Below, piece by piece: positions 17,933 to 31,986 of a stretch of DNA of 32,151 nt. The translations under genes and the position numbers were made by a program. Location: assembly GCA_024763435.1 (NCBI GenBank), contig JANTFN010000003.1:1-32151 (forward strand), read 5' to 3'. The notes below the pieces were generated by a model. It was given only the letters and a program-made list of their open reading frames with translations, was not told where the DNA came from and ran no database searches. The DNA comes from Thermodesulfobacteriota bacterium (GTDB lineage Bacteria; Desulfobacterota; S145-22). How positions within the stretch are numbered: position 1 is the stretch's first letter; the number at the start of each line of letters is the position of its first letter.

Positions 17933-18078
17933 AAACACATGGGGTGACTTAATTCTTGCAAAAGGCTTCTTGTGTTTCCGCGGATCTTCAGGGGTTTATG
18001 TTGCTTCAGTGTTTAACCGGCGTCCCTCTTTTTTACTGTCCGGCAGCTTGACAGCGACACAAATTCAGCCTATTTATT

Positions 18079-20766
18079 TTACCATGTTTGACTGATCCAG
18101 TGCGGGCAATCTCCCTTGTCGATGCTAAGATTAATTTTTTGACTTTTCACGGGGGCATCTGTTAGATAAATTGTTTTGGTATCTTTTGACACGCCATTTT
18201 GCGTGTAGGTAAATAGCGAAATATTTAGTTTTGGGGACAACTTCCCGTAACACAGGCAGCCGGGGCCAAAAGGAGTTCCATCAATACCCTGCTTGCATTC
18301 CTTGAATACCCAAAACAGCGCTTCCACGCCGGAAATACCGACCGTGGGGAGGGTCATGACATAACTTATCTTGCCTTTGGGAAATGATGTCGTTTTGTAC
18401 TGGATGGGGGAAGAATTTCCCCTGCCGGTGAAGGAAAAGGTGTCTTTGACTGTTTTGGGTTCAATCCAGAATTTCCAATGACTGTGCCAGGTTTGTGGGG
18501 CGCTCGCACCGAGACGATAGGGGGTTGCAACAGTAAAAGTCAAATATTGTGCCCCGAATTGAGTATGCCCATAATCACCGAGGACAAAGGCGGAATTTGA
18601 GTTGACTTCCATAAAGACTTTTATCCATTTTACGCTTCCGGTTGACGAGGCGCTGAACTGCCATTTGACGTCCTTGATTTTGAATGTTGCATTTTTTGGT
18701 TTCTGGTCATTGGTGATTGAAAAAGCACTGCTTTCGATCTGGGCGCTGCGGTCCGATTTTTCGATGAGCGCGGTATATTTTCCCTGGGGTGTGTCTGCTA
18801 AGACCGCAATCGAGGCCACGCCGCTATAGGGGTTGATAATCAGCTCTTCGGCAATCTTCTTGTGGCTGGCATTCCAAAGCGAAATATAAAGGTTTGTGTT
18901 TTGCAAAGCCTGTTTGTCCAAAACAGTCCACCTAACGTTGTGCCAGCTGCCGGCTTTCCATACCGTTGTTTTGATGGGTTCGGTTATTTTAAGGGTATTA
19001 AAGTAAGCCGGGGCTCTATGGGAATAGGAGATTGAAGGACCGCTGGTTTTTAAAGTAAAAGGCGCACTGTCGCCGGAGACAGTCTTGTTGGATGCTTCAA
19101 CACGCGCGATGAATTGTCCGCTATAAAACTTGGCGGGGATTTTCCAGAGAAGTTCTCCTGTGTTGATAATTGTATTATCGCCCCCTGAGCCGCTACTGAT
19201 TATTGAAAAGGGGGAAGTTTTACCATCCGGATAAATCGTAATTTTTACCTTCGTGGTTTTGCCAAGCCCTATACTGTACCAGCGAATGGGTAATGTCTGG
19301 CCGGACTTCCAGATTGAACCGGATTTTGGGGACCAGACGTTTATGAACGCCGATTCTATGATTTTCGGGGGTAATGGCTTTGCAATGTAAAAAGTATCAC
19401 TTTCACCGTAAATCTTGCTGTTGTTTGAGGCTGAAACGCGGATAAAATAGGTTCCCGCGGGTATTGTCGAAGGTACCGTCCAGGGGAAGGTGAAGCTCAA
19501 AGCGTTAATAGAGCTTTTTATTGTTTTGGTTGTTTTCTTGGTTGTAGCATTTTTAAGCTTGATATTTACCTTATTAATGCTGGCTCCCAAAACAATCCAT
19601 TTTATTTTATGGGTTGTTTTGTAACGCCATACATTATTTTTCATGGGGGATGATATGCCTATACCGTTAGAAGTCCCCATGAAAATTTCGGGTAAAGGAA
19701 GAAAAGCCAGTGGTTTTCTCGCTGCGTAGGGCAATGGTCTTTTCGGTAAAGGCCCAATTCCTGGCTTTGCGATTGAGACGTTTCCCGCGGCAGCCGGTGC
19801 GCGATGCGTTGCCGGCACGTTGCCTGGAATGGTGAAATGTTTGCTATCACTGAAAACCAGGTTATCCAGGGTCTGCACCCGCACTATGTACTTGCCTGTG
19901 CGTTTGATCCTGGAAAGCGACAGACTGAAATGTCCATTGTTGGAAGCGTTTTTCGTCAGCCAGGCCCCATGGCCGTCAGCGGCCAGACGAGATTGTCCAG
20001 CCGGATAAAGCAGAATTTTGATACGGGTATTCATTCTGCCCTTTTTAGACCAGCGGATGTCCAGAAACTTCCCTCTCCAGCCTTTGACCCCGGGATGCTC
20101 CGAGCCCTTCATGGCCAGGGTTTCGATTTCCGCTTTGACATTATAGATCTTCCCCAGCACGTTCCTGACAGGTTTCGCCCTCTCGATATGGGGAGTCCGG
20201 GCGGGCCCTGTTATCCTGACCCCCTGGATCGGTGCGGCAACAATAATCTGAACCGAGGTGCTGTTGTTCTGTGGTCTTATGTCTTCCTGCCCTTTCTTCG
20301 GGATGACCGCAACCTTGACGGTGAAACTCCCCGGCTTTTTAACCTTGAAGGTGGTCTTAACGTCATGTGACTTTCCGGCATCAAGTTTGAGTTTATGGTT
20401 CTTGTCTTTGGTGATCTTCTTTCCGTTCAGGTAGAAGCGCACCACGGCATCCTTGAAGGTCAGGAGACCTGTGTTTTGAATGGTTGCCGTAAAGGTAAGG
20501 GGTTTTCCTATCTTTGGCTTACTGGGAGAGAAGGTGAGTTTCTGGACACTGAGATCACCTTTCAAAGTCAAGGGCCTGGCTTGATGGATTTTCTGGCGGG
20601 CAGGTTGCGCCCGGTGGGATTGCTGCCCGGCAGGGTGACTGTTCCCGGTCCTTTCAGGGGGCGGCAACTGAAGCTGCTGGATGGCAACTGCGGTTGAGCC
20701 ATAGAAGCAGAAGGCTATAAGGGTGAAAGCAAAAATTGCCTGTACGATATATGTCTTCCTTTTCAT
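18079..20766 (-). CDS. Secreted multi-Ig-like protein E (CARDB + ~4 Ser/Thr-rich-family Ig-like modules); lacks the Cys repeat
   Basis: Signal peptide; DLSV....FSP..P..G....TATIQN.G...NN (CARDB); repeated SP.....W..G....I.W ... S..F.I modules; AAGGAGG SD. Confidence 0.85.
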   Translation of the reverse strand: MKRKTYIVQAIFAFTLIAFCFYGSTAVAIQQLQLPPPERTGNSHPAGQQSHRAQPARQKIHQARPLTLKGDLSVQKLTFSPSKPKIGKPLTFTATIQNTGLLTFKDAVVRFYLNGKKITKDKNHKLKLDAGKSHDVKTTFKVKKPGSFTVKVAVIPKKGQEDIRPQNNSTSVQIIVAAPIQGVRITGPARTPHIERAKPVRNVLGKIYNVKAEIETLAMKGSEHPGVKGWRGKFLDIRWSKKGRMNTRIKILLYPAGQSRLAADGHGAWLTKNASNNGHFSLSLSRIKRTGKYIVRVQTLDNLVFSDSKHFTIPGNVPATHRAPAAAGNVSIAKPGIGPLPKRPLPYAARKPLAFLPLPEIFMGTSNGIGISSPMKNNVWRYKTTHKIKWIVLGASINKVNIKLKNATTKKTTKTIKSSINALSFTFPWTVPSTIPAGTYFIRVSASNNSKIYGESDTFYIAKPLPPKIIESAFINVWSPKSGSIWKSGQTLPIRWYSIGLGKTTKVKITIYPDGKTSPFSIISSGSGGDNTIINTGELLWKIPAKFYSGQFIARVEASNKTVSGDSAPFTLKTSGPSISYSHRAPAYFNTLKITEPIKTTVWKAGSWHNVRWTVLDKQALQNTNLYISLWNASHKKIAEELIINPYSGVASIAVLADTPQGKYTALIEKSDRSAQIESSAFSITNDQKPKNATFKIKDVKWQFSASSTGSVKWIKVFMEVNSNSAFVLGDYGHTQFGAQYLTFTVATPYRLGASAPQTWHSHWKFWIEPKTVKDTFSFTGRGNSSPIQYKTTSFPKGKISYVMTLPTVGISGVEALFWVFKECKQGIDGTPFGPGCLCYGKLSPKLNISLFTYTQNGVSKDTKTIYLTDAPVKSQKINLSIDKGDCPHWISQTW

Positions 20767-20857
20767 GACCTGTCCCCTCCTTTTTTCATGCTGAGATTAT
20801 ACCGGACCATTTTCTATGATCCTTTTTTTAGTAGTTACAGGATGGCACGCACCACCT

Positions 20858-23371
20858 TCACCAACAACTTCTGGCTTCTGAACAGGTGAGGGGGTAGAAG
20901 TATACCGTATCATCAAAATCTCTGTAGGTATGAAGCCTCTTATAGATATAACCTTTTACACAGTTGTTGGCTTCATTGGTTTCCATAATAAGATTATCAG
21001 GGTCAATTCTGGCATGGTACTCCCGGACTCCCGGCATGATCCAGTACTCCTGGCGTTGATCGCATTTATATCCGTCTCCCCCAGTATAGGGATCCAGCTC
21101 AGGGATGTCGTAGCACTTCCCCCCGCACTTCTCTATCCAGATGCAAAGTTTTGACGGGGGCGACCGGACAGTCCCCATGTTCCTTACGTAGACAGGGATT
21201 CTGACATGTCTGTTCAGCTTTGCCCAAATTTCACTACATATACAAACGACAAGGTCAGGCAGATTGTTTGCTCTGTGGGCGGAGAAAGTTTTACGGTCTT
21301 CGTTGTTAGATTCATTGGATTCATCGACATCATTGTTGGTATCAATCTCAAGGGTGTGGTGATATTCTCCAGCAGCAGGATAATTGTATGATTTTTCCAG
21401 AAGATAGTGTACCCCGTAGTTAAGGGAAGGAATGTTTATGTCATCAAATTCCTTTTGAAATCTCGGTCCGCTTATGGCCAGCTTTGCCTTCGAAGGGCCC
21501 GCGCTTCCCAGGGAATTGTTTTCAATCAAGGCCTTTACCGTGATTAATCCCTGTGTTTCATCCTCTTCTATTTCCATGTTCCTGATGATCAAGTCTGGTT
21601 TGTAGGTGACAATTTCAAACCGGTCACTGACTGTCAGGTAATTCCAGTCTCCCTTTCTTATTTCGATTCTATAATTGCCTGACGGAATTTCAGGGACCTG
21701 CCAGGTAAAGCTGGTGCCGTGAAGTTCTTCACTTATTAATTCATACCGGACACCCATGAGCAGGACAAAAAAACCTTCCTCAGAATTGTGGAAGTTGTCC
21801 GTCCACTTGAGAGTGTACGTGTTGCCCTGGACGAGAATCGATCCCTTGCGGGGAAAGATTACCATGTTCGGCGGCGGGATATATTCTTCTGTGGCTATCT
21901 GCTGACATGTCATTGTATCGGACCAGGTATTATCTTCGTCGGATTCATCAATCCTGTGGTTCGCATCTGCCTCAATCCTGATTTCCTTGCCGCATGGAGC
22001 GGAAGCAAAAGTGTAAGAAAGAAGTTCTGTTGATACACTTGACGGTAAAGGAGGATTGACGTGCTGGGAATGCACAAGGCTGTTTCCGAACCAGATATGA
22101 ACGTTGAAAGCATCTAATACGGTGAGTGTGCCAATATTTTTTACCTTGTAAGATAATGTTACGGCATCGCCGGGTGAAAAATACCGGGGTAAAAAACTGA
22201 CCTCTGTTACGATAAGGTTTGGACCATCACCAGGCGAAAACAGTTTGCCGGGCAAATGCTTCCCTTCTGCCTGGAGGATTGAAGGCTTTGAAGCCTGCAT
22301 TGTCGGATGCGTTTTCGGGGATATGATTGTCGGCTTAAAGGCTTTCGCTTTAACTTTCTTAAAGGCGACCTGGATTTTTTCACTTTTTTTCAGCACAAGT
22401 TCAGTATCAAAATCCAGCATGCCGCCCGGTTTAGCCAAAAGCTTCTTGGGATCAATGCCTTTCAATCGCCAGCTCTTTGCCCTGCCACCATGGTGGAGGA
22501 CCAGCTTTCCATGCCGGTAATCCCCGGCAGTCAGTTTCCCTTTCCCCCTGTTCCGGACACGGATATGAAGCGTGCCGCCCTTGAGATAAATCCTCACGAT
22601 GGAAAGCAGGGGAGGTGCCTGGGCCAGAAGCGTTGTTTTCTTGGATGCCGCCGGGGCCGGAGAGTACTTCCTGACACTCAGGGTCTTTTCCGCCTCGGCC
22701 TTCTTTTTGAAAAACCGCCCACGTCTCGCCAGGCATTTCCTGTAGGTGGTTTCAACGATCCGGCCATTTAACAGGCACCATCCCATGGGTTCACATACCC
22801 TGGAAGCTGCTTGTTTGTCTTTGAAAAATATGCCCTTCTTTTTGAAACAGTCTCCCTTCTTCATAAGAGAAACCTTGTGGTTGATGCAGCAATATCCTGG
22901 CTGATTCATCTCGCAGTAAAGAAGCGCAGCGCCTTTTTTTTCAAAGAACCGCCCTTTTGCCTCCTGACACTTTCCCCTGACGGTTTTGACGACCTTCCCG
23001 TTGATGCAGCAATATCCCGGCTGATTGATCTCGCAATAGTGGGTCGCCGCTGCCTTATTTTCAAAGAACAGGCCATTTATTCCCTGACAGTCTTCCTTTT
23101 TTAATGAAGCGACCTTGCCATCTGTACAGCACCATCCTTTCGTCTGGGCATTGAGATACGCCTTCGCGGAATTCCTGTCTTTGAAGAAATGCCCCTTGCA
23201 CCTGGACCGGGTGCTTTTGAAGATCTTACCATCCGCGCAGCACCAGCCGGTGACGTGGCTACCCTTTTTAGTCTTTGCGGCTTGTTTGGCATAGGAAGAG
23301 AGAACACTTCCCGCAGTTATCAGCAATGCCGCCAACAGGAAGGTTATCAGGTGTTTTGTCTGTTTTTTTAT
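20858..23371 (-). CDS. Secreted Cys-repeat protein A (5 repeats; CARDB and Ig-like C-terminus); probable ATA start
   Basis: ATA at 23371 follows AAGGAGGA and gives IKKQTKHLITFLLAALL, collinear with MKNQAKHLIIFLLVALL of paralogue D; three CARDB-like modules (PNL.V, PDL.I, PDLVV ... E..E.N). Confidence 0.85.
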   Translation of the reverse strand: MKKQTKHLITFLLAALLITAGSVLSSYAKQAAKTKKGSHVTGWCCADGKIFKSTRSRCKGHFFKDRNSAKAYLNAQTKGWCCTDGKVASLKKEDCQGINGLFFENKAAATHYCEINQPGYCCINGKVVKTVRGKCQEAKGRFFEKKGAALLYCEMNQPGYCCINHKVSLMKKGDCFKKKGIFFKDKQAASRVCEPMGWCLLNGRIVETTYRKCLARRGRFFKKKAEAEKTLSVRKYSPAPAASKKTTLLAQAPPLLSIVRIYLKGGTLHIRVRNRGKGKLTAGDYRHGKLVLHHGGRAKSWRLKGIDPKKLLAKPGGMLDFDTELVLKKSEKIQVAFKKVKAKAFKPTIISPKTHPTMQASKPSILQAEGKHLPGKLFSPGDGPNLIVTEVSFLPRYFSPGDAVTLSYKVKNIGTLTVLDAFNVHIWFGNSLVHSQHVNPPLPSSVSTELLSYTFASAPCGKEIRIEADANHRIDESDEDNTWSDTMTCQQIATEEYIPPPNMVIFPRKGSILVQGNTYTLKWTDNFHNSEEGFFVLLMGVRYELISEELHGTSFTWQVPEIPSGNYRIEIRKGDWNYLTVSDRFEIVTYKPDLIIRNMEIEEDETQGLITVKALIENNSLGSAGPSKAKLAISGPRFQKEFDDINIPSLNYGVHYLLEKSYNYPAAGEYHHTLEIDTNNDVDESNESNNEDRKTFSAHRANNLPDLVVCICSEIWAKLNRHVRIPVYVRNMGTVRSPPSKLCIWIEKCGGKCYDIPELDPYTGGDGYKCDQRQEYWIMPGVREYHARIDPDNLIMETNEANNCVKGYIYKRLHTYRDFDDTVYFYPLTCSEARSCW
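22679..23248 (-). repeat. 5 x ~40-aa G[WY]CC Cys-rich repeat in protein A
   Basis: G[WY]C[CL]x[DN]G[KR]x7-C-x4-G-x-FF-x5-A-x3-C repeated. Confidence 0.92.
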
Positions 23372-23403
23372 AACCTATCCTCCTTCCATTTAGTTTATCA
23401 AAG

Positions 23404-25566
23404 CTACAACGTGAGACAGGAATACTCCCTCTCCCTATCAATAGCTCTCCAGGTGATGTGACAATCATTATTCGAGGTGCTTGTTTCGGGTATCTTGTTG
23501 TGCTGATCAAGAATAACGTGAAAATCGAGATCGTCGCCCCTGTGTGAATCATTATAAATAAAGGTATATATTTTTTCCTGGTGCCCGCCGATCCCATCCT
23601 CAATCCAGCCGGCCATATCAAGGCCCCGGAGATCAATTCTGATTCGCCGCCAGGTTGTTCCAGCTTCTCGGTTTTCTACGGTGATCTGAATAACAAGCTG
23701 TCGTTGCCCGCTCACTGTTCGACGGGAAATTCTGACATGGGATGTGTGAATGTCGATCTCGGGATGTTCACTCTCATCGCCGGGAGTGAACGTGATACCG
23801 GCTGCGTCATTATTGCCTGAACTGTTGGTAACGGTTATTTCGGCAGGTCGATTTTCTCCGGCATAAAGTCTGTCGGTAGGATCTCCGTAAGGATCATCCA
23901 TGGTGTCCGAAAGCTGCATCCTAATCCGGGTGTTATTCCAACTGATAATATTGACCCTGTAAGCGTATCTGTCACCCGGGACAGAAAATGTTAATTGACC
24001 CGGGGAGTCTCCAAAGTTCCTCCCGCGTATCGTAAGCTCCTGGAGAGGTGAAATTTCTCTCTTGGAAAGGCGATCGATACGTGGAACCATCGGCTGAATG
24101 GTGCAGACATATCTGGGACCTTCTTCGCCACTGTAATAGTAAGGTGTCTCGCTGGGTCCACCCGGTCCCGAAGCGATAAAGGTTCCGGGTGCCGGCGGTT
24201 CGACCCGGGCAGGTTTGAGCCAGATCACAGTCTCTTTTGCCGACCGGCCGATGGCTTCTCCCATGGATATCGGAACGATGCAGCGGACACGCCCTTGCGT
24301 CCATTCGGTAATCTCGCAGGAAAAAGTCGCATCCGGCAGGGCAATGACCACATGGCCTTCGTTTCTCCCAAAATCGTGGCCGTAAATGGACAGATTCCCC
24401 CCGACAGCGACCGGATGGTTGACCGATGTAATCCTGGCCGGAAACCCGGGCTCGGGGAGTGATGGTGCCTGCGCAGTCATCCCCGCATTAGATCCGGCAA
24501 CTCTTCGTTCTGTGGTCATGCGCGAATTCTGTAATGCCTTGTTGGATTGTTGAGAGGGAGCTATTTTCCTTTTAAAATAGTCGGTTTTTACTGTTGGCAT
24601 AATCTGCAAAGCACTTGACCTGCTGGCAACAGGGATGAGCAAAGCAGTTTTCTTCGCTTCACCGGGAAGGTTTGAAAATGACGTCTTGATCCTTGCGCGC
24701 CGGGTCAACTTGAGTCCGGTATCGAAATCCACGCTTTTGCCGGGGGTGAGCGCCCCCCTGGGATCGACCTTGCCCAAAGTCCAGGTCTTGTTCTTCGCGC
24801 CAAATGACAGAATAAGGCGGCCCTTGTCGTAATGCTTGCGCGTAAACTTCCCTTTGCCCTTGTTTTTGACCCGGACATAGATGGTGCCGTTTCTGAGAAA
24901 AATCTTCTCCACGGAAAGCAGGGGAGAGAGAGTGGACTTCCCTGATGTCCCCGGACCGGAAGAGGGTTTCTGCTTCTGTGTTGCCTGGCGCAGGGCCTTT
25001 TGAGCTTCCGCTTTCTTGGTGAAAAAACGCCCCCTTCTCGTCAGGCAGATCTTGCGGGTGGTTTCAAAAATCCGGCCATTAAACAAACACCAGCCCTTGC
25101 AGGCCGCGGCGGCTTTTTCCCTGCCTGTGAAGAACTTCCCTCCCTTGTCCTGACAGCCCCCTTTGGTCATCCTTGAGACTTTTCCATCCAGGCAGCAGTA
25201 CCCGGGGGTCTGGGCGTCGCAGTAGTCATTGGCGTCATTCTGGGTTGTGAAGAACTTCCCTCCTCTTATTTTGCAATTGCCTTTGGTTATGTTGGTAACC
25301 TTTCTATCCGCGCAGCACCAGCCTTTTGTCTGGGCATCGAGATACGCCTTCGCGGAGTTCCTGTCTTTGAAGAAATGCCCCTTATGTTCTCGACAGTAGG
25401 AACTGGTACTTTTGATGATCTTGCCTTTCGCGTAGCACCAGCCGACTATTTGACCGCCCTTTTTCCCTTTCGATGCCTGTTTGGCGTAGGAAGAGATGGC
25501 AAATGCGGAGACGACCAGTAATGCTGTGAAAAGAAAGAATATTGCATGTTTTGTTCTAGGGTTCAT
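23404..25566 (-). CDS. Secreted Cys-repeat protein B (4 repeats; two IPT/TIG-like domains + CARDB-like end)
   Basis: Signal peptide ending SSYA; RITSV...G..LSIYG.DFG and PRI..LS......LTIRG.NFG; D..N.I.E....NN. Confidence 0.9.
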   Translation of the reverse strand: MNPRTKHAIFFLFTALLVVSAFAISSYAKQASKGKKGGQIVGWCYAKGKIIKSTSSYCREHKGHFFKDRNSAKAYLDAQTKGWCCADRKVTNITKGNCKIRGGKFFTTQNDANDYCDAQTPGYCCLDGKVSRMTKGGCQDKGGKFFTGREKAAAACKGWCLFNGRIFETTRKICLTRRGRFFTKKAEAQKALRQATQKQKPSSGPGTSGKSTLSPLLSVEKIFLRNGTIYVRVKNKGKGKFTRKHYDKGRLILSFGAKNKTWTLGKVDPRGALTPGKSVDFDTGLKLTRRARIKTSFSNLPGEAKKTALLIPVASRSSALQIMPTVKTDYFKRKIAPSQQSNKALQNSRMTTERRVAGSNAGMTAQAPSLPEPGFPARITSVNHPVAVGGNLSIYGHDFGRNEGHVVIALPDATFSCEITEWTQGRVRCIVPISMGEAIGRSAKETVIWLKPARVEPPAPGTFIASGPGGPSETPYYYSGEEGPRYVCTIQPMVPRIDRLSKREISPLQELTIRGRNFGDSPGQLTFSVPGDRYAYRVNIISWNNTRIRMQLSDTMDDPYGDPTDRLYAGENRPAEITVTNSSGNNDAAGITFTPGDESEHPEIDIHTSHVRISRRTVSGQRQLVIQITVENREAGTTWRRIRIDLRGLDMAGWIEDGIGGHQEKIYTFIYNDSHRGDDLDFHVILDQHNKIPETSTSNNDCHITWRAIDREREYSCLTL
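24991..25443 (-). repeat. 4 x G[WY]CC Cys-rich repeat in protein B
   Basis: Same consensus as in A. Confidence 0.92.
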
Positions 25567-25605
25567 GGTAATTCCCCTCCTTTTTTTATGTTGCCGGTTT
25601 TTTAC

Positions 25606-25645
25606 TCTTTATAAGTAAGTGTCAAAATCACCGAAAAAGTTCATT
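25606..25645 (-). promoter_or_regulatory. Conserved 40-bp upstream element, copy 1
   Basis: 38/40 identical to 31947-31986; ~40 bp upstream of the ATG of B. Confidence 0.7.
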
Positions 25646-26111
25646 CCTCTGTGAAATTAAATTTTTCATGTCTAAATGAAGATTTAACAATTTAAATTCC
25701 CATAAAAAGTTTCCCCTGTAGGGGATCTATTTTTTTCTCCGGAAGAAGGAAAATATTTCCCCCTGTTTTTCTAATACAAGTAAAAATGTCAAAAGGCCCT
25801 TGTTTCTAAACCAGGGCACAACGGAGAAAAATCAAAAAAAGGGAGAATACACCAGGAGTTTTCCAGCGATAGCATAGTCTGCGGCCTGTAACGCGATATC
25901 TCACCGGAAACGCATACCTTAAAGATGATGTCTGTTGTTGGACCATTACGTGAATCTCTAAATTATAGGTTCTCATAAACAATAACATTGTTTTAATATC
26001 ATGTCAAAGTCCTGGCAGTGCTTAACGGCATACGTAAAGGGAAAACTAAAGCGTGTAAATAAAATTAAGTTCATATCGAGAAAGCCCCTTTTTGTTGTTG
26101 GCTAACGCTTG

Positions 26112-28877
26112 TTATTCGATGTAGAAAAAATCACTATAGGCTGTTACGCTGGGACAATTATCAAGCTCGAGGCGCAACCTGTATCTCCCGGTAGGAAGCG
26201 CGCCAGGCCCGCCCATGTTTCCCGCCCCACTGTCGCCTCCTGCCATCGTTACCCCATAAGACGCATCGTAACAGGAAGAGCCGATGACCCACCGAAAGCC
26301 TATTGTCGAAGACACCATAATTCTATAATTAAATGGTAGGTGTCGCGCTATGCAATCATAGTCTCTCCCGTCAGAACTGAGGTAAAGAGAGGCGGTTGCA
26401 GTGGGACAGGGATGGGGGCAGTATGGTGAATTGTCCCACACAATATCCACCCTGTCACCACTGGAGAAACGTCTCCTTGAGCCGGAGAAACCAAGTGTTA
26501 TTGCTGGTTGCTCGATGCGAAACTCCTCGCTTTCCCCGTAAATTCTGGGATCGGTTCTACTTTCAATGCGGATTTTGTACCCAGCTCCCAAGTATATGTC
26601 ACCTCTGCAATCACCACCGATTATCCAGGGGTGATTAGTCAGGTCAATATGTGATAGCGCTGCAATATTTTCAAGGATTGTTTTTATGCGTCTCCCACGA
26701 TTCATCAAGATTGCGTTGATCCTTTCAGGCCTAAAATTATAATGGCAGTGAATGGTTGGGGTGGAACCCAGAGACAGGGTTTCTCCATCTACCGAAACTT
26801 CCATAGGTGGGACAACGCTGAAAGAATGATCACTTTGATCATCAATCAGGGTCCCCCCGGTGATTATTTTGATAGTGTAGTCATCTCCCTCTTCGTAAGA
26901 GCCCGAGACATCATAGTTTACTGTACAGGTATAGGCATTGGCATTGGGACCCGGGGCATCTGAATCAAGTACACAATGGGCGTCTGTTTCATAGATTGTA
27001 TCCAAAATTCGCCCGTTTTTCATCAGTTGTATGAAGAAGTTCGGCAAAGCATCGCCGGGCATGGCAGAATAGTAACGCCATGAAATCGCCTGTCTGCTTC
27101 CTTTGGGCCACAATTCACCGCCGTTGGGGGAGAGCACACTAATACCATAAGCGCGCGTAGTTGATCCTGCGTCCCTGATCCCGCGAGTAAGATAAAAGGG
27201 CTTAGAAGAACCGTGAGATTCATTTTCTCCAACAAAGCGGACTCGGTTAAAAAAAGTCATGACATAAGGGCCCCCTTCCTGGAGATCATCGGGAAGGGTA
27301 CAATCAAGGATAAGGCTTCGCCGATCATCACTCAGAGACACAATAGTGCAAGGCAAGAAACGCCAAACTCCCATCATGGTTTCCGATTGCGATTGCAGGT
27401 GAATCCGTTTCTCCAGTTCATCTCCGGGGGGGCTTCGGAATGAAGGAAATTCCGGATCGGGAATAGAGAGGTAGATTGTCACATGCTCATTGGCAAGGTA
27501 AATTTGTTTCCTTGGTTCAATAGAAACTAACATTCCATGAGGGGCATAAGCATGCATCTCCGGGGGAATCACCCAGCCAATTTGAAAATCATCACTCACA
27601 CCATAGATGGCAGCAGTTGCTCGAACCATTACTGTATAGTGCCGGTTGGAAGGCACGTCTGCTGGAACCGGAAGTTCGACGCGCATTTCTCTTGACGGGA
27701 GCGGAATGACTGAGACGTCAGCGGTGGCAACGATTGTGTCTCCATTCCTAAGGGTCACTTCGGAAATCGGGAGCGGTTCTCTGCTTTCCTCAAAACTAAA
27801 ATGCACTTCGATGGTGTCGCCGGGCATAAAATGATTGGTGGATGAAGGCAGGGAAACATGAATTCCCCGATCAATAAAGAGGGGATTGTGTTTGCCCGGC
27901 TTACGGATGAGGGAAGGCAGTTTTCCCTGAAGCTTGGCGGGTGTCACGCCTGCCGCACGGGATAATGGAGCAACGCTGGTAACACGTCTGGTAAAAACCT
28001 TATGTTTTCCTTCTTTTTGAGTCAGTACTTTCGATGGTCCGAGTCGTACCGTCTTGAATCCTGCTATCCTGACCTTTTTAAAGGTTATCTGGAATTGGAT
28101 TATTTCTCTTTTTTTCAGCACAAGCCCCGTATCAAAGCTCATCTTTCCGCCCGGTTTAGTTAAAAGTCTTTTAAGATCAATCTGCTGTAAGCGCCACGTA
28201 TTTATCTTGCCGCTATAACGGAGGACAAGTTTGCCCTGTTTGTAATCCCGGGCGGTCAGCTTCCCTTTTCCTTTATTCTGGAGACGGATATGGACGGTGC
28301 CGCCCTTAAGATAGATCCGGGCTACGGAAAGCAGGGGGAAGATAGAAGGCTTGGCTGGTGCCTTGCTTGGAACCAAAAGGGACGAGGGAGCCTGCTTCCC
28401 GGACTTTGCCAGATGCAGGGCCTTTTCAGCTTCGGCTTTCTTCGTGAAAAACCGCCCCCGTCGCGTCACGCAGAGCTTTTTTGTACTCTCGAAAATCCGG
28501 TTGGTTGACAGGCACCAGCCTTTCAGTTCACAAGCTGAAGTGGCTTTGGTTTTGTCTGTAAAGAATTTTCCTTTCTTTTTCAGGCAGTTCCCCTTATTCG
28601 AGGAAACCACCTTGCCATTCAGGCAGCAGTATCCGGGGATCTGGCTATCGCAATAGCTCACAGCGGCCTTGTGGGATGTAAAGAAGTGTCCCTTATGCTT
28701 TAGACACATCGAAAGGGTACTTTTGAAGATCTTGCCGCCCGCGCAGCACCAGCCGATAGTATGGCTACCCTTTTTCCCTGAAGGCGTCTTCATGGCGTAG
28801 GAAGAGATGGCAAATACGAAGACGACCAGTAAGGCTGTGAAAAGAGAAAATATTGCATGTTTTGTTCTGGGGTTCAT
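26112..28877 (-). CDS. Secreted Cys-repeat protein C (3 repeats; ~5 Ig-like modules)
   Basis: Signal peptide ending SSYA; VLSPNGGE.W..GS...ISW module; recurrent YG.S..F.I module ends. Confidence 0.9.
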   Translation of the reverse strand: MNPRTKHAIFSLFTALLVVFVFAISSYAMKTPSGKKGSHTIGWCCAGGKIFKSTLSMCLKHKGHFFTSHKAAVSYCDSQIPGYCCLNGKVVSSNKGNCLKKKGKFFTDKTKATSACELKGWCLSTNRIFESTKKLCVTRRGRFFTKKAEAEKALHLAKSGKQAPSSLLVPSKAPAKPSIFPLLSVARIYLKGGTVHIRLQNKGKGKLTARDYKQGKLVLRYSGKINTWRLQQIDLKRLLTKPGGKMSFDTGLVLKKREIIQFQITFKKVRIAGFKTVRLGPSKVLTQKEGKHKVFTRRVTSVAPLSRAAGVTPAKLQGKLPSLIRKPGKHNPLFIDRGIHVSLPSSTNHFMPGDTIEVHFSFEESREPLPISEVTLRNGDTIVATADVSVIPLPSREMRVELPVPADVPSNRHYTVMVRATAAIYGVSDDFQIGWVIPPEMHAYAPHGMLVSIEPRKQIYLANEHVTIYLSIPDPEFPSFRSPPGDELEKRIHLQSQSETMMGVWRFLPCTIVSLSDDRRSLILDCTLPDDLQEGGPYVMTFFNRVRFVGENESHGSSKPFYLTRGIRDAGSTTRAYGISVLSPNGGELWPKGSRQAISWRYYSAMPGDALPNFFIQLMKNGRILDTIYETDAHCVLDSDAPGPNANAYTCTVNYDVSGSYEEGDDYTIKIITGGTLIDDQSDHSFSVVPPMEVSVDGETLSLGSTPTIHCHYNFRPERINAILMNRGRRIKTILENIAALSHIDLTNHPWIIGGDCRGDIYLGAGYKIRIESRTDPRIYGESEEFRIEQPAITLGFSGSRRRFSSGDRVDIVWDNSPYCPHPCPTATASLYLSSDGRDYDCIARHLPFNYRIMVSSTIGFRWVIGSSCYDASYGVTMAGGDSGAGNMGGPGALPTGRYRLRLELDNCPSVTAYSDFFYIE
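28416..28754 (-). repeat. 3 x G[WY]CC Cys-rich repeat in protein C
   Basis: Same consensus as in A. Confidence 0.92.
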
Positions 28878-29062
28878 GGCAATTTCCCTCCTGTTGCAAG
28901 CTTGAATGTTAACATTTTTGAACTCAACCTGTTTGGCTCGGGGCTTCTTTTCATGACAGTGATGGTTTTGTCGATGTCGGTCTGTTTGGTTTTCGCTATG
29001 CCCAAAAGCCCCATAAACAGGAAACGCAATACAGTTATTGCCGGAATGACAATTTTTCTCAC
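28874..29062 (-). CDS. Small ORF or gene relic between D and C
   Basis: GTG start, basic then hydrophobic N-terminus (MRKIVIPAITVLRFLFMGLLGIA), stop overlaps the start of C (ATGA); no recognisable domain. Confidence 0.25.
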   Translation of the reverse strand: MRKIVIPAITVLRFLFMGLLGIAKTKQTDIDKTITVMKRSPEPNRLSSKMLTFKLATGGKLP

Positions 29063-29153
29063 AGGGTCACCTTTAGGGGTTGTTGTTTTTCGACACCTGC
29101 GAACAAGATAAGAGAAGTTTCTCCTCCCTTATTTTTCTGATTGGATTTCCATC

Positions 29154-31910
29154 TTACCTCCTGCAACCACGGTCAGGTAAGTGAAACATTGAAGAAAGAC
29201 CGTACACATAGTTTCTAAAACCATTAGGATACACCACGATGTTTGCAGGGATTCCTCGGTCATTTGTAAAACAACTGCAATAAGGATAGCCACCGCTACT
29301 ACTCTCGCCGAATCTCCAGCACAGACTTCCAGAAGGTGGCTGGTCATAGGATATCCAGATTTCACCACAATACCGCATAATTTCATGGAAGAAAGACTGA
29401 GCCGCGCCACAACTCGAGTTGCCGCTAACATACAGACAAACAACAGATACCCGAACCGAAGCATCCAGGGGGCTTTCCCAGTGGATCTGTCTGCCGTGTC
29501 TGCATCCGGATGTATTGGTCCAGACCCGGAAACCGGCATACCTTACTTCGAAATAACTGCCCAAGCCGTAGTTAGAAGGATCAGACGTATCGGAGACGCG
29601 AATCGCATAATGCGAACCACCATGCAGGGGCACTTCTTCTCCATGAAAAATCCACTGGCCTTCAGATACGCGATTTCCGCCTATATTCCACGTAAACCTT
29701 TGCTCGTTCCCACTAAATACCCCCTGGTTTCGGCTTAAGACCATAACCTCTGTTCCGCTTTCGTCCACAACTGAAATGCGAACGGAGCGTACCCCGGTGT
29801 GTGAGTGTTCTAATGGCCATTGGAATCGAATGACAGTAGGGTTGGCTATATAGCGCACGCCGCCACCATGCATTACCTTGATCGGGCCGGTGACGGAAAA
29901 CGTTTCGCTTATTCCTTCGGTAGGGCCGTTTCTATCTACAACTTTGATCCGGTAATCGGATGCCGGAGACAGATCGGCGGGGATAGGCCAGCTGAGAGAG
30001 TAGGACTCGGATGCCCCATGCCATATGGCACGTTCTGCGGGGATTGTAAGCACGGTATCAGCGCCACGCTTCAGCTGAACCAGAAAAGCGCGTTCTGCGG
30101 GGTAATGGCCATTGATACGCCAGGCAATAATCTGGGTGCTGCCGCGCGGCCAGCTGATCGGCGTGTGTCCTGGTGTTACGAGCCGAATCTCCCAGGCCGT
30201 ATGGGTTCCCCCGCCTCCCTCAGAAGCTCCCCCTTCCCCTATTGGCCGGATGGGAAATGTGACAAATCCGCTTGCTTTGGGATGCGTGGCAAGGATGGTA
30301 TAATTACCATAAGAGATGCCGGATGGGATTTCGAAGTGCAGCGTGTGGATTGCCTGATGCATCGTGCCCGCCCCTTCCGGGAGATATTCTTGCGTCTGTT
30401 CCGCTTCAACGCTGCCGTTGTGGTAGAGCTGAAAGGTAATTGTGCCGGGTTCGACCCGTCGGTTGAACTGATACCTGACGGTCATGGTTCCGCCCGTATG
30501 CTGGACATCATCCCTGGAAGGCTCTAAAAAGTCTATTCGCGCCAAGTTTCTCGTGATCTGAAATTCATCGCTTTCACCGTAGGCGTCGGATGCGGAATGG
30601 CTGGCTGAAATATAATAGCGCCCGATGGGGGTATCCTCCCGGAGCGTTAAAAGAGCCGGAACGCCTGGATGGGCGGGAACAGTTATGGTGCCGGCGTTGG
30701 TGCCGGTCCTGCTGAGGACGGAGAAGGTAATGTCGCCGTCCGACACATCCTCCCGGGTAATCTCATAAATGATATGGATGGTTTCACCCTGGTAATATTT
30801 TGCCGGGCCGACAGGATTGAGAATATGGATTCCCCTGTCAAGTATCATGGGGACCATTGATGGGGGTGACGGTTTCGCCCTTTTGGCCATCATCAAAGGT
30901 GAAACGGGTGTTTTTTTTGTATGTCCTGTGGAAAATGTTGAAGCCGTTTTCTGCTTCAATCTTTCAGATGGGGTAAGCAGAGATGTTTTGGATTTACCAC
31001 TTGGGAGTTGAGCAGTTGAAACCTGGACTTTGGCGCGCCGGGTCAGTTTGAACCCCGTATCGAACTCGACATATTTGCCTTTATTGAGCGCGCCTTTGGG
31101 GTCGATCCTGCTCAAGGACCAGGTCTTGTTCTTCGCTCCCAGCGACAACATTAAGCGCCCCTTGTCATAATGCCCCCGCGTAAACTTTCCCTTGCCTTTG
31201 TTTCTCACACGGAGATGGACGATGCCGTCCTTGAGATATATCTTTTCCACGGAAAGCAGGGGAAATAGCGCGGGCTTCTCTGGTGTTCCCGGGCCGGGCG
31301 ATAGTTTCTGCTTCTGCTTTGCCAGACGCAGGGCTTTTTGAGCTTCCGTTTTCTTGGCGAAAAAACGCCCCCGCCTTGTCAGGCAGGTCCTGCGGGTGAT
31401 TTCGAAAATCCGGTTGTTTAACAGGCACCAGCCTTTTAGTTCACAGGCTGAGGTGGCTTTGGTTTTGTCTGTAAAGAATTTTCCTTTCTTTTTCAGGCAT
31501 TCACCTTTCTTCATTTTGGAAACCTTGTGGTCAATGCAGCAGTAACCCGGTTGACTCATCTCGCAATACAGGTCCGCCGCGTTTTTTTTCTTAAAGAAAT
31601 GCCCTTTGTTTTTCAGGCAGTTCCCCTTATTCGAGGAAACCACCTTGCCATTCAGGCAGCAGTATCCGGGGGTCTGGGCGTCGCAGTAACTCTCGGCAGC
31701 CTCGCGGGTTGCAAAGAAGTGCCCCTTCTGTTTTGAACACATTGCGGCGGTGGTCTTAACGGTTTTACCGCTCTTGCAGCACCACCCGATGGTCTGGCCT
31801 CCTTTTCCCCCTTTTGAGGCCTGCCTGGCATGTGAAGATATAACGGCTCCCACAGTTCCCAGAAGCGCCACAAGCAGGAAGATTATCAAGTGCTTTGCCT
31901 GATTTTTCAT
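29154..31910 (-). CDS. Secreted Cys-repeat protein D (4 repeats; ~5 Ig-like modules)
   Basis: Signal peptide ending SSHA; DRGIH entry into the Ig region shared with C; YGESDEFQI, GISETFSV, YGLGSYFEV, YGLSSMFHL module ends. Confidence 0.9.
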   Translation of the reverse strand: MKNQAKHLIIFLLVALLGTVGAVISSHARQASKGGKGGQTIGWCCKSGKTVKTTAAMCSKQKGHFFATREAAESYCDAQTPGYCCLNGKVVSSNKGNCLKNKGHFFKKKNAADLYCEMSQPGYCCIDHKVSKMKKGECLKKKGKFFTDKTKATSACELKGWCLLNNRIFEITRRTCLTRRGRFFAKKTEAQKALRLAKQKQKLSPGPGTPEKPALFPLLSVEKIYLKDGIVHLRVRNKGKGKFTRGHYDKGRLMLSLGAKNKTWSLSRIDPKGALNKGKYVEFDTGFKLTRRAKVQVSTAQLPSGKSKTSLLTPSERLKQKTASTFSTGHTKKTPVSPLMMAKRAKPSPPSMVPMILDRGIHILNPVGPAKYYQGETIHIIYEITREDVSDGDITFSVLSRTGTNAGTITVPAHPGVPALLTLREDTPIGRYYISASHSASDAYGESDEFQITRNLARIDFLEPSRDDVQHTGGTMTVRYQFNRRVEPGTITFQLYHNGSVEAEQTQEYLPEGAGTMHQAIHTLHFEIPSGISYGNYTILATHPKASGFVTFPIRPIGEGGASEGGGGTHTAWEIRLVTPGHTPISWPRGSTQIIAWRINGHYPAERAFLVQLKRGADTVLTIPAERAIWHGASESYSLSWPIPADLSPASDYRIKVVDRNGPTEGISETFSVTGPIKVMHGGGVRYIANPTVIRFQWPLEHSHTGVRSVRISVVDESGTEVMVLSRNQGVFSGNEQRFTWNIGGNRVSEGQWIFHGEEVPLHGGSHYAIRVSDTSDPSNYGLGSYFEVRYAGFRVWTNTSGCRHGRQIHWESPLDASVRVSVVCLYVSGNSSCGAAQSFFHEIMRYCGEIWISYDQPPSGSLCWRFGESSSGGYPYCSCFTNDRGIPANIVVYPNGFRNYVYGLSSMFHLPDRGCRR
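31329..31787 (-). repeat. 4 x G[WY]CC Cys-rich repeat in protein D
   Basis: Same consensus as in A. Confidence 0.92.
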
Positions 31911-31946: not shown

Positions 31947-31986
31947 TCTTTATAAGTAAGTGCCAAAATCACCGAAAAGGTTCATT
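31947..31986 (-). promoter_or_regulatory. Conserved 40-bp upstream element, copy 2
   Basis: 38/40 identical to 25606-25645; ~36 bp upstream of the ATG of D. Confidence 0.7.

Follow-up and report, generated by a model that had tools for sequence, protein, structure and literature searches.

CARDB (PF07705) is the 'cell adhesion related domain found in bacteria'. SLH, Listeria GW, LysM and choline-binding repeats act as non-covalent envelope anchors at protein termini, where a few tandem small modules, often basic, are found at one terminus of secreted proteins that are otherwise unrelated. A list of putative adhesins of syntrophic sulfate reducers includes CARDB proteins (PMC10553843). The window analysed here (the whole stretch of DNA, 32,151 nucleotides) contains, according to the ORF listing, five co-oriented minus-strand ORFs, g0 and A-D, spanning 18079-31910, with the repeat-bearing tandem genes A-D at 20858-31910. 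The initial annotation had taken this 14-kb span as one co-oriented array; the orientation is common to all five genes, and g0 has neither the Cys repeat nor the conserved PLLS domain of the others. The genes and the short repeated elements around them are as follows.

18028-18075, unstranded: 48-nt element just past the g0 3′ end, with a 98% copy on contig C106
18079-20766, minus strand: g0, 895 aa, signal peptide, CARDB at residues 71-169, Kre9_KNH-like Ig at residues 373-461, C-terminal part without assignment, 4 Cys
20858-23371, minus strand: gene A, 837 aa from ATA at 23371 or 825 aa from TTG at 23335; 5 Cys units, CARDB-like domain, then three CARDB and one Kre9_KNH-like module
23404-25566, minus strand: gene B, 720 aa; 4 Cys units, CARDB-like domain, IPT/TIG-containing C-terminus
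25606-25645, unstranded: copy of the 40-nt element, upstream of B, 95% identical to that upstream of D
26112-28877, minus strand: gene C, 921 aa; 3 Cys units, CARDB-like domain, Kre9_KNH-like and unassigned modules
29154-31910, minus strand: gene D, 918 aa; 4 Cys units, CARDB-like domain, Kre9_KNH-like and unassigned modules
31947-31986, unstranded: 40-nt element upstream of D

The 40-nt element upstream of D and B may be a shared promoter or operator, and the 48-nt element, which has its C106 copy upstream of a pta-like gene, probably flags the five-gene block on either side. No secretion genes were found adjoining the array or the copies in relatives, and no secretion, sortase or chaperone gene recurred beside the latter, whose neighbours include other CARDB proteins. 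Genes beside the relatives' copies showed no significant similarity to g0 (BLASTP E 0.03), and a search of the order's 8 other genomes at E≤1e-20 found no match to the YeeE-like left neighbour. Read mapping revealed contig pieces at least 99% alike in three further sequencing runs. Joints in the mapping at 24867/28404 and near 23000-25200 fall where the repeats are encoded and probably reflect branching of the assembly graph between paralogues; we accepted no structural variant of the array from these data.

ORFs, regular expressions and an HMM reproduced the layout first proposed for A-D, namely signal peptide, Gly 42, 5/4/3/4 repeat units and conserved domain. The signal peptides, read by eye in the translations, are of Sec type, and A-D share one of 28 residues with the first repeat Gly at residue 42. 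This holds for B-D as annotated. Gene A has no ATG, GTG or TTG at the position homologous to the B-D start; the aligned codon is ATA (23371-23369), 6 nt after GGAGGA, and the first canonical start, TTG at 23335, would leave a signal peptide of only 16 residues. For A, both the 28-aa signal peptide and Gly 42 are therefore conditional on an ATA start. The N-terminal features map as follows.

31827-31910, minus strand: signal peptide of D, residues 1-28, ending ...ISSHA and followed by RQ (from the translation, as for the next three)
28794-28877, minus strand: signal peptide of C
25483-25566, minus strand: signal peptide of B
23288-23371, minus strand: signal peptide of A, from ATA
31320-31787, minus strand: Cys-repeat region of D, residues 42-197, 4 units
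28407-28754, minus strand: Cys-repeat region of C, residues 42-157, 3 units
24982-25443, minus strand: Cys-repeat region of B, residues 42-195, 4 units, unit 1 without C4 and C35
22670-23248, minus strand: Cys-repeat region of A, residues 42-234, 5 units
30984-31268, minus strand: divergent CARDB-like Ig domain of D, residues 215-309, 'PLLSVEKIYL...'
28059-28343, minus strand: CARDB-like domain of C
24646-24930, minus strand: CARDB-like domain of B
22334-22618, minus strand: CARDB-like domain of A

The repeat consists of units of 38-40 aa of G[WYF]CC type, five in A, four in B, three in C and four in D. In each of the four proteins, a regular expression combined with a position script located the first G[WY]C[CLY] unit at residue 42, and an HMM built from the units returned identical counts. 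Unit 2 of C is a hybrid that starts as a match to unit 2 of D and, at an offset of 120 nt, goes over into unit 3, which suggests that repeat number changed by in-register recombination. Relatives carry 1-12 units per protein, and the first and last units are conserved unit-specifically across orthologues.

Structure prediction gave the unit as a beta-hairpin, a short helix, a strand and a helix, with predicted disulfides C3-C17 and C4-C35, of which the final unit keeps C3-C17 only; for D these would be 44-58, 45-76, 84-98, 85-116, 124-138, 125-156 and 162-176. The 40-residue module is predicted to fold confidently and offers a testable disulfide map. We counted cysteine losses over the 695 distinct units in which none of the four Cys columns is a gap. 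All four cysteines were kept in 618 units, C4 and C35 were absent together in 52 and C3 and C17 in 11, and the pattern was broken in 14. Units without C4/C35 were found in 37 proteins, and the lost pairs were mostly replaced by hydrophobic pairs (L/A, L/L, V/L). This paired loss indicates which cysteines are partners, and the partners would be joined as disulfides. A homodimer prediction with two copies of the N-terminal cassette scored 0.00 and gave no answer either way.

Profile searches for the canonical disulfide machinery found no match to VKOR, DsbB or Thioredoxin_4 in the source genome (79% complete). Of five carrier genomes with a completeness of 92-100%, none yielded DsbB or DSBA, and VKOR and Thioredoxin_4 each turned up in one. 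Carrier genomes thus appear mostly devoid of DsbA, DsbB and VKOR, a puzzle for cysteine-paired proteins. The sequencing runs listed for the source sequence comprise 5 of DNA, in 3 studies and each labelled hydrothermal vent metagenome, and none of RNA. Because of this habitat and the missing genes, oxidation of the predicted Cys pairs in vivo is in question, and the locus poses a concrete problem: by what route, if at all, organisms that have no DsbA, DsbB or VKOR oxidise paired cysteines. One explanation, which we regard as very unlikely, is that the Cys pairs are metal- or sulfide-reactive sites and not disulfides, with the cassette binding metals or metal-sulfide minerals or sensing redox at vents.

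The initial annotation called A-D an undescribed family, and for the repeat this stands. Residues 42-234 of A-D gave no match in Pfam-A 2025 or NCBIfam r20 at E≤0.1, and neither database matched the repeat in any of the five window proteins. Among 94 scanned relatives no Pfam family was common to a majority. In 12 repeat-rich relatives no family passed its threshold on the repeat, GULLO2-like_3rd giving sub-threshold matches of 16-18 residues in 2 of them. The PDB returned no sequence match and no convincing solved-fold match, and full-text literature searches returned nothing describing a G[WYF]CC unit, which thus appears to be without a described family in Pfam, NCBIfam or PDB. The top VIA-align structural rows for the repeat were zinc fingers, and C2H2 arrays likewise consist of tandem beta-beta-alpha-containing units of 30-40 aa; a C2H2 zinc finger was rejected, since there is no conserved His column among 747 units and Cys is lost in pairs.

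Nor is the family confined to the array. An HMM found the repeat in 6 genes of the source genome, and it occurs in other phyla as well. The N-terminal 272 aa of D had 159 matches at E≤1e-10 among 1.84 billion representative proteins, far beyond chance for the cassette, and the repeat module was found in 301 representative clusters at E≤1e-3. Carriers belong to Desulfobacterota-type lineages, Aminicenantes, Thermoanaerobaculia and Syntrophus; a related-locus search with a single protein returned one relative, a Desulfobacterales MAG. A homologue with 6 units is encoded in the record 'Thermodesulfobacteriota bacterium B35', which bears no MAG label. In other phyla the repeat is joined to FecR, peptidase, PASTA and CARDB partners, and judged by these partners it is a portable module. 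Its confidently predicted fold, its 301 clusters and its absence from Pfam, NCBIfam and PDB make it a candidate new domain family and structure target, and it flags exported proteins in anaerobes that are poorly known and have a largely unannotated surface biology. The likeness to GACC-type repeats of planctomycete secreted proteins that the initial annotation suggested found no support. No planctomycete Pfam family gave a match; a degenerate DNA pattern hit at least 118 loci in genome contigs, and of those listed the repeat HMM bore out only 7, the others being chance hits, and none of the 4 planctomycete loci among them. The best ESM Atlas neighbour was a mostly planctomycete cluster with a score of 0.81, below the lead level, and G-A-CC variants of the unit are present in one relative (P0010).

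The second constant element did not prove new. The domain of about 90 aa, with PLLS at residues 254/215/181/217 of A/B/C/D, has a mean column identity of 51% across 12 aligned copies. A profile of these 12 copies, from which the domains of two proteins encoded elsewhere in the genome (contigs C134 and C247) had been left out, matched the first domains of those proteins at 1.5e-13 and 5.1e-11 among 17,839 ORFs. With 32.5 and 24.6 bits, these first domains exceed the Pfam CARDB cut-off of 22.7. Gene C is 35% identical to the C134 protein (BLASTP E 3.7e-10), and in a relative from Aminicenantes a canonical CARDB comes after 5 units. None of the four window copies matched Pfam CARDB even at E≤1, direct hhalign comparison with the four CARDB domains of the window was weak (probability 5%), and a PDB profile search returned nothing below E 0.14. 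The domain is homologous to accepted CARDB domains, and its fold is an Ig-like beta-sandwich comparable with solved CARDB domains. On these profile and fold comparisons, it is a divergent CARDB-type Ig-like sandwich and not a new module.

Downstream of this domain the four proteins diverge, over the following stretches.

29157-30983, minus strand: variable C-terminal cassette of D, with a P/K/S/A linker of low complexity ahead of Ig-like modules
26115-28058, minus strand: variable cassette of C
23407-24645, minus strand: variable cassette of B
20861-22333, minus strand: variable cassette of A

Pfam assigned three CARDB and one Kre9_KNH to the C-terminus of A, TIG to B, Kre9_KNH to C and D, and CARDB and Kre9_KNH to g0; in whole-protein scans the CARDB matches of A sit in its C-terminal part. 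The CARDB, IPT/TIG and Ser/Thr-rich-type Ig-like modules originally assigned are thus matched in part, large portions of B, C and D having no Pfam match. The description of a constant N-terminus with a variable C-terminus was borne out. The N-terminal parts of the paralogues are 38-60% identical, and the C-terminal cassettes match in pairs only, D with a gene on contig C150 (50% identical over full length), B with a partial gene on C260, and A with those on C134 and C247, so that a second copy of each cassette type is found elsewhere in the genome. This pattern suggests that C-terminal cassettes (CARDB x3, TIG-type and Kre9-type) have been shuffled onto a common N-terminal cassette.

Tandem paralogues of this layout would also be expected if the array encoded polymorphic toxins or effectors, the constant N-terminus serving delivery and the variable C-termini being toxic. 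Pfam and NCBIfam revealed no enzyme, toxin, nuclease, peptidase or immunity family in the five window proteins, the intergenic gaps of 32-545 nt held no small immunity-like or conserved small ORFs, and the C-termini that can be assigned are Ig-like modules, all of which makes such an array extremely improbable. The variable toxin domain with adjacent immunity gene that defines a polymorphic toxin system was not found, and we rejected that assignment. In agreement with the initial annotation, A-D carry no enzyme, toxin, lipobox or barrel signature in either database. No outer-membrane translocation, sorting or anchoring signal was recognised, and reading of the translations revealed neither a C-terminal tag shared by A-D and g0 nor a CxxCH motif in A-D. 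A-D are probably exported proteins of the surface or matrix that have no enzymatic activity.

The two halves of these proteins differ in charge, the repeat regions having a pI of 9.6-9.8 and the C-terminal cassettes one of 5.3-7.2. Across relatives, net charge is positive in 516 of 747 units, and the pI of the repeat region is below 6 in 29 of 144 proteins. With a common new repeat and gene-specific Ig modules, A-D look like cell-surface binding proteins, and we infer that they are exported beyond the inner membrane and have anchoring and binding roles. In the mechanism that we propose, the five genes would encode Sec-exported, non-enzymatic modular proteins, four of them paralogues built on one N-terminal cassette in the order signal peptide, 3-5 mini-domains, divergent CARDB-type sandwich and low-complexity linker. 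After export the basic cassette would serve as a common attachment module or stalk, binding to a surface or to an anionic polymer of the envelope or matrix, and the near-neutral or acidic variable cassettes would confer differing binding specificities. The cell would thereby possess a range of adhesin-like proteins for its surface or matrix. We give this reading, exported modular proteins with a basic attachment or stalk cassette and shuffled Ig specificity cassettes, a probability of about 0.5.

The strongly conserved positions of the 747 units all look structural (Gly, Cys, aromatic, Ala), so that no ligand site can be named. This would also suit a rigid, disulfide-stapled stalk or spacer that binds nothing itself, with attachment and specificity lying in the CARDB-like domain or the C-terminal modules, as would the defined mutual geometry predicted for four units (pTM 0.77), the varying unit number, typical of stalk repeats, and a charge that is not conserved in all relatives. 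However, three to five units would make a short stalk, their position between signal peptide and long flexible linker suits an anchor better, and the unit-specific conservation of first and last units suggests more than a spacer; we consider a mere stalk possible, if unlikely. As to location, the only signal is of Sec type, with neither a sorting signal nor secretion genes nearby, and a periplasmic site is therefore equally compatible with it. There the proteins would have an envelope-structural or binding role, with their basic repeats attached to peptidoglycan or to the outer membrane's inner face. Against this, strings of CARDB, TIG and Kre9-type Ig modules are, by their family descriptions, typical of extracellular and cell-surface proteins, A-D are large multi-module proteins with long linkers, and relatives include fusions to secreted-type peptidases (M35, C13), which renders the periplasmic alternative decidedly unlikely. 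A bolder version of surface attachment, to which we accord a slim chance, would make the G[WYF]CC unit a hitherto unrecognised extracellular fold family whose Cys pairs form a redox or metal-sulfide switch in anaerobes without Dsb, the basic cassette attaching reversibly to minerals or partner cells at the oxic-sulfidic interface of vents and the Ig cassettes choosing the partner.

Taken as exported attachment proteins, A-D resemble several known systems in part. With fibrillar adhesins they share a signal peptide, strings of Ig modules, the lack of an enzyme domain and shuffled paralogues, but at 720-921 aa they have no long identical stalk repeats. Pfam and NCBIfam recognised no adhesive tip domain and no LPXTG, T1SS, T5SS or T9SS anchor, the sole T9SS-tail match, in g0, falling below cut-off (19.1 vs 23 bits). 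As in envelope-anchor repeats, one module is reused on many domains, the Cys unit occurring with CARDB, FecR, peptidase and PASTA; the likeness is one of analogy only, since sequence and fold show no similarity, the Cys unit is predicted to be disulfide-paired and its carriers are diderm-type anaerobes. CARDB surface proteins offer a further likeness. Bona fide CARDB domains are present in A and g0, the conserved domain of A-D is a divergent CARDB relative, and CARDB neighbours accompany the array's relatives. The A-D domain nevertheless fails the Pfam model and is without the C-terminal E-x-N-E-x-N-N type motif, and the Cys-repeat cassette was seen in no described CARDB protein that we found. 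Modular surface proteins that are rich in Ig domains and have shuffled cassettes are common, and the locus reveals no new kind of system; what is new in A-D is a domain, set in proteins of a familiar kind.

The ORF listing for positions 18079-31910 gave five genes, all on the minus strand, in line with the co-oriented genes that the initial annotation had described:

18079-20766, minus strand, gene g0, which lacks the Cys repeat
20858-23371, minus strand, gene A, if read from an ATA codon
23404-25566, minus strand, gene B
26112-28877, minus strand, gene C
29154-31910, minus strand, gene D

The metagenome-assembled genome (MAG) that contains them amounts to 1.94 Mb in 285 contigs and is 79% complete, and the window is the entire contig C3. 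A position script and a profile HMM confirmed the layout previously claimed for A-D. Their N-termini are signal-peptide-like segments of 28 residues, nearly identical to one another; the first G[WY]C unit stands at residue 42 in each; and A, B, C and D carry 5, 4, 3 and 4 Cys units, respectively (regular-expression count, with which the profile HMM agrees). The PLLS domain, a divergent CARDB-type Ig-like sandwich, is found at residues 254, 215, 181 and 217.

The Cys unit spans 38-40 residues with the consensus G-[WYF]-C-C-x2-G-x-[VIL]-x7-C-x4-G-x-[FY]-[FY]-x5-A-x3-C. Pfam-A and NCBIfam gave no match to it in the window proteins, in support of the claim of an undescribed family. The scan covered 94 of the 150 listed relatives, picked as no longer than 760 aa within the residue limit, and none of the families occurred in a majority of them. 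Recurrent partners were CARDB (13), FecR (12), Cyt-b5 (5, some of which may fall on the repeat itself), Kre9_KNH (4) and TIG (3), and twelve repeat-rich relatives returned sub-threshold family fragments only. An HMM built from the 16 window units, with one iteration over 155 proteins, recovered 747 units in 144 proteins, at 1-12 each.

Cysteine pairing was counted on the 695 distinct units with residues at all four Cys columns. All four cysteines were kept in 618 units; C4 and C35 were jointly absent in 52 units from 37 proteins, and C3 and C17 in 11 units from 4 proteins, mostly with replacement by hydrophobic pairs. Only 14 units broke the rule, 10 of them lacking C35 alone. Fisher p values for the pairing were 1e-65 and 1e-22, figures that overstate independence since units of one protein are related. 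Two buried disulfides, C3-C17 and C4-C35, would leave just this pattern of loss. In each of A-D the final unit is the two-Cys form. How such pairs would be oxidised is a puzzle: VKOR, DsbB and Thioredoxin_4 had no match in the window genome, at its 79% completeness, and five carrier genomes that are 92-100% complete gave 0/5 for DsbB, 0/5 for DSBA, 1/5 for VKOR and 1/5 for Thioredoxin_4 (the genomes behind these observations are G000, G001, G004, G006, G319 and G384). The three carriers from the window's own family (92-99% complete) had none of DsbA, DsbB, VKOR or Thioredoxin_4. The explanation is either another oxidase, extracellular oxidation of the Cys pairs, or a different role for them.

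Cys units are encoded by six genes of the genome, namely A-D, a gene on contig C150 and a partial gene on C260; the PLLS domain occurs in these six and in two more, on C134 and C247, whose proteins have two PLLS domains each and zero Cys units. C134 also encodes, at 142-690 on the minus strand, an exported thioredoxin-fold protein of TlpA/ResA-like type, with a CPPC motif identified by visual reading only. About 2 kb away is a family member that has two CARDB-type domains and lacks Cys units. The constant N-terminus and divergent C-terminus initially ascribed to A-D were recovered: the N-terminal ~300 residues are 38-60% identical, and beyond them the proteins match in pairs only. D matches the C150 protein over its full length (50% identity), B the C260 protein over 561 aa (32%), the C-terminal half of A the C134 and C247 proteins (25-32%), and C part of D. 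These pairwise matches indicate that one N-terminal cassette has been recombined with a small set of C-terminal ones. Within the shared part the genes are 64-81% identical at the DNA level and thus are not recent duplicates. The first half of unit 2 of C aligns with unit 2 of D and its second half with unit 3, at a 120-nt offset; this hybrid shows the loss of one unit by in-register recombination, a deletion that explains why C has 3 units and D has 4.

Gene A has an unusual start (23335-23384). The codon aligned with Met1 of B-D is ATA, not ATG, GTG or TTG, with GGAGGA 6 nt upstream. TTG at 23335, the next canonical start, lacks a Shine-Dalgarno sequence, and its use would shorten the signal peptide by removing the charged beginning. 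Contigs of sequencing run X1, which contains the entire stretch, span the ATA codon with no variant listed. Either ATA is a rare start codon here, or gene A is weakened or silenced. Because A lies 32 nt after B, the two are probably co-transcribed. B and D are each preceded, some 40-75 nt before their starts, by a 40-nt element (25606-25645 and 31947-31986, 95% identical), a candidate for a promoter or operator common to both. Another element, of 48 nt, at 18028-18075 beyond the 3′ end of g0, contains TTGACA-N17-TATTTA/T and recurs with 98% identity at 6050-6097 of contig C106, at the contig end and upstream of a pta-like gene. On the right side, one X1 contig continues 213 nt past 32151 and then matches this 48-nt element. 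From this we infer, short of proof, that C3 abuts C106 and that the array ends at D with direct repeats on both sides. Flanked in this way, the five-gene block would resemble an inserted island that lacks an integrase.

A HMMER search of 1.84 billion representative proteins returned 301 matches at E<=1e-3, of which 159 reached <=1e-10 and 35 reached <=1e-30. Only 10 matches, four being the window's own, came from 5.8 billion clusters searched by word index. Those among the matches listed were named 'hypothetical' or 'FecR family' throughout. The organism belongs to an uncultured deltaproteobacterial/Desulfobacterota-type lineage whose closest RumA-like relatives are MAGs (41-56% identity), and runs containing the window DNA are labelled hydrothermal vent metagenome. 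Matches occurred in 4 of the 9 genomes of the organism's order and, across the phylum, in 7 of the 401 genomes sampled. HMM-confirmed copies, among the matches listed, came from Desulfobacterales, Desulfobulbaceae, Thermodesulfobacteriota bacterium B35, Syntrophus and a delta proteobacterium, and also from Thermoanaerobaculia (two records), Aminicenantes and Bacteroidetes. The units follow the signal peptide in most relatives (first unit at or before residue 60 in 81/144) and are C-terminal in FecR-type lipoprotein-like ones. In one of the latter (locus L037, 9171-10538, minus strand), the N-terminal part is FecR-like and the C-terminus carries six near-identical Cys units; it shows that the unit is a portable module, capable of recent expansion. 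An Aminicenantes MAG (locus L099, 2058-3131, minus strand) encodes a 358-aa protein in which five Cys units, acidic to neutral in charge, link the signal peptide to a single canonical CARDB domain and nothing else is present; this is the N-terminal cassette in minimal form in a different phylum.

As initially stated, no enzyme, toxin or immunity family was matched in the five proteins (Pfam, NCBIfam). A-D are built, in this order, of a signal peptide, a rigid basic repeat, an Ig domain, a long P/K/S/A linker and variable Ig modules; the repeat regions are strongly basic (pI 9.6-9.8) and the C-terminal cassettes have pI 5.3-7.2. From this order and charge contrast we infer that the repeat and Ig domain may serve all four proteins as an attachment module or stalk, and that the variable Ig modules are putative binding ends differing from protein to protein. 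Across relatives, 516 of 747 units have net positive charge, and the loop at unit positions 18-21 has at least 2 basic residues in 448. Limiting this reading, the conserved unit positions are all structural, the repeat regions are acidic in 29/144 relatives, and Sec is the only sorting or secretion signal to be seen. The cassette might work similarly to SLH, GW and LysM-type anchors, a likeness that implies no relatedness.

All in all, the initial observation held, and its interpretation was supported in part. The Cys unit represents a new and well-defined domain family, in a type of protein that is already familiar. The closest known kind is that of modular surface proteins rich in CARDB and Ig domains, and passages of PMC10553843 name such CARDB/Ig-rich proteins as adhesin candidates in syntrophic sulfate reducers.
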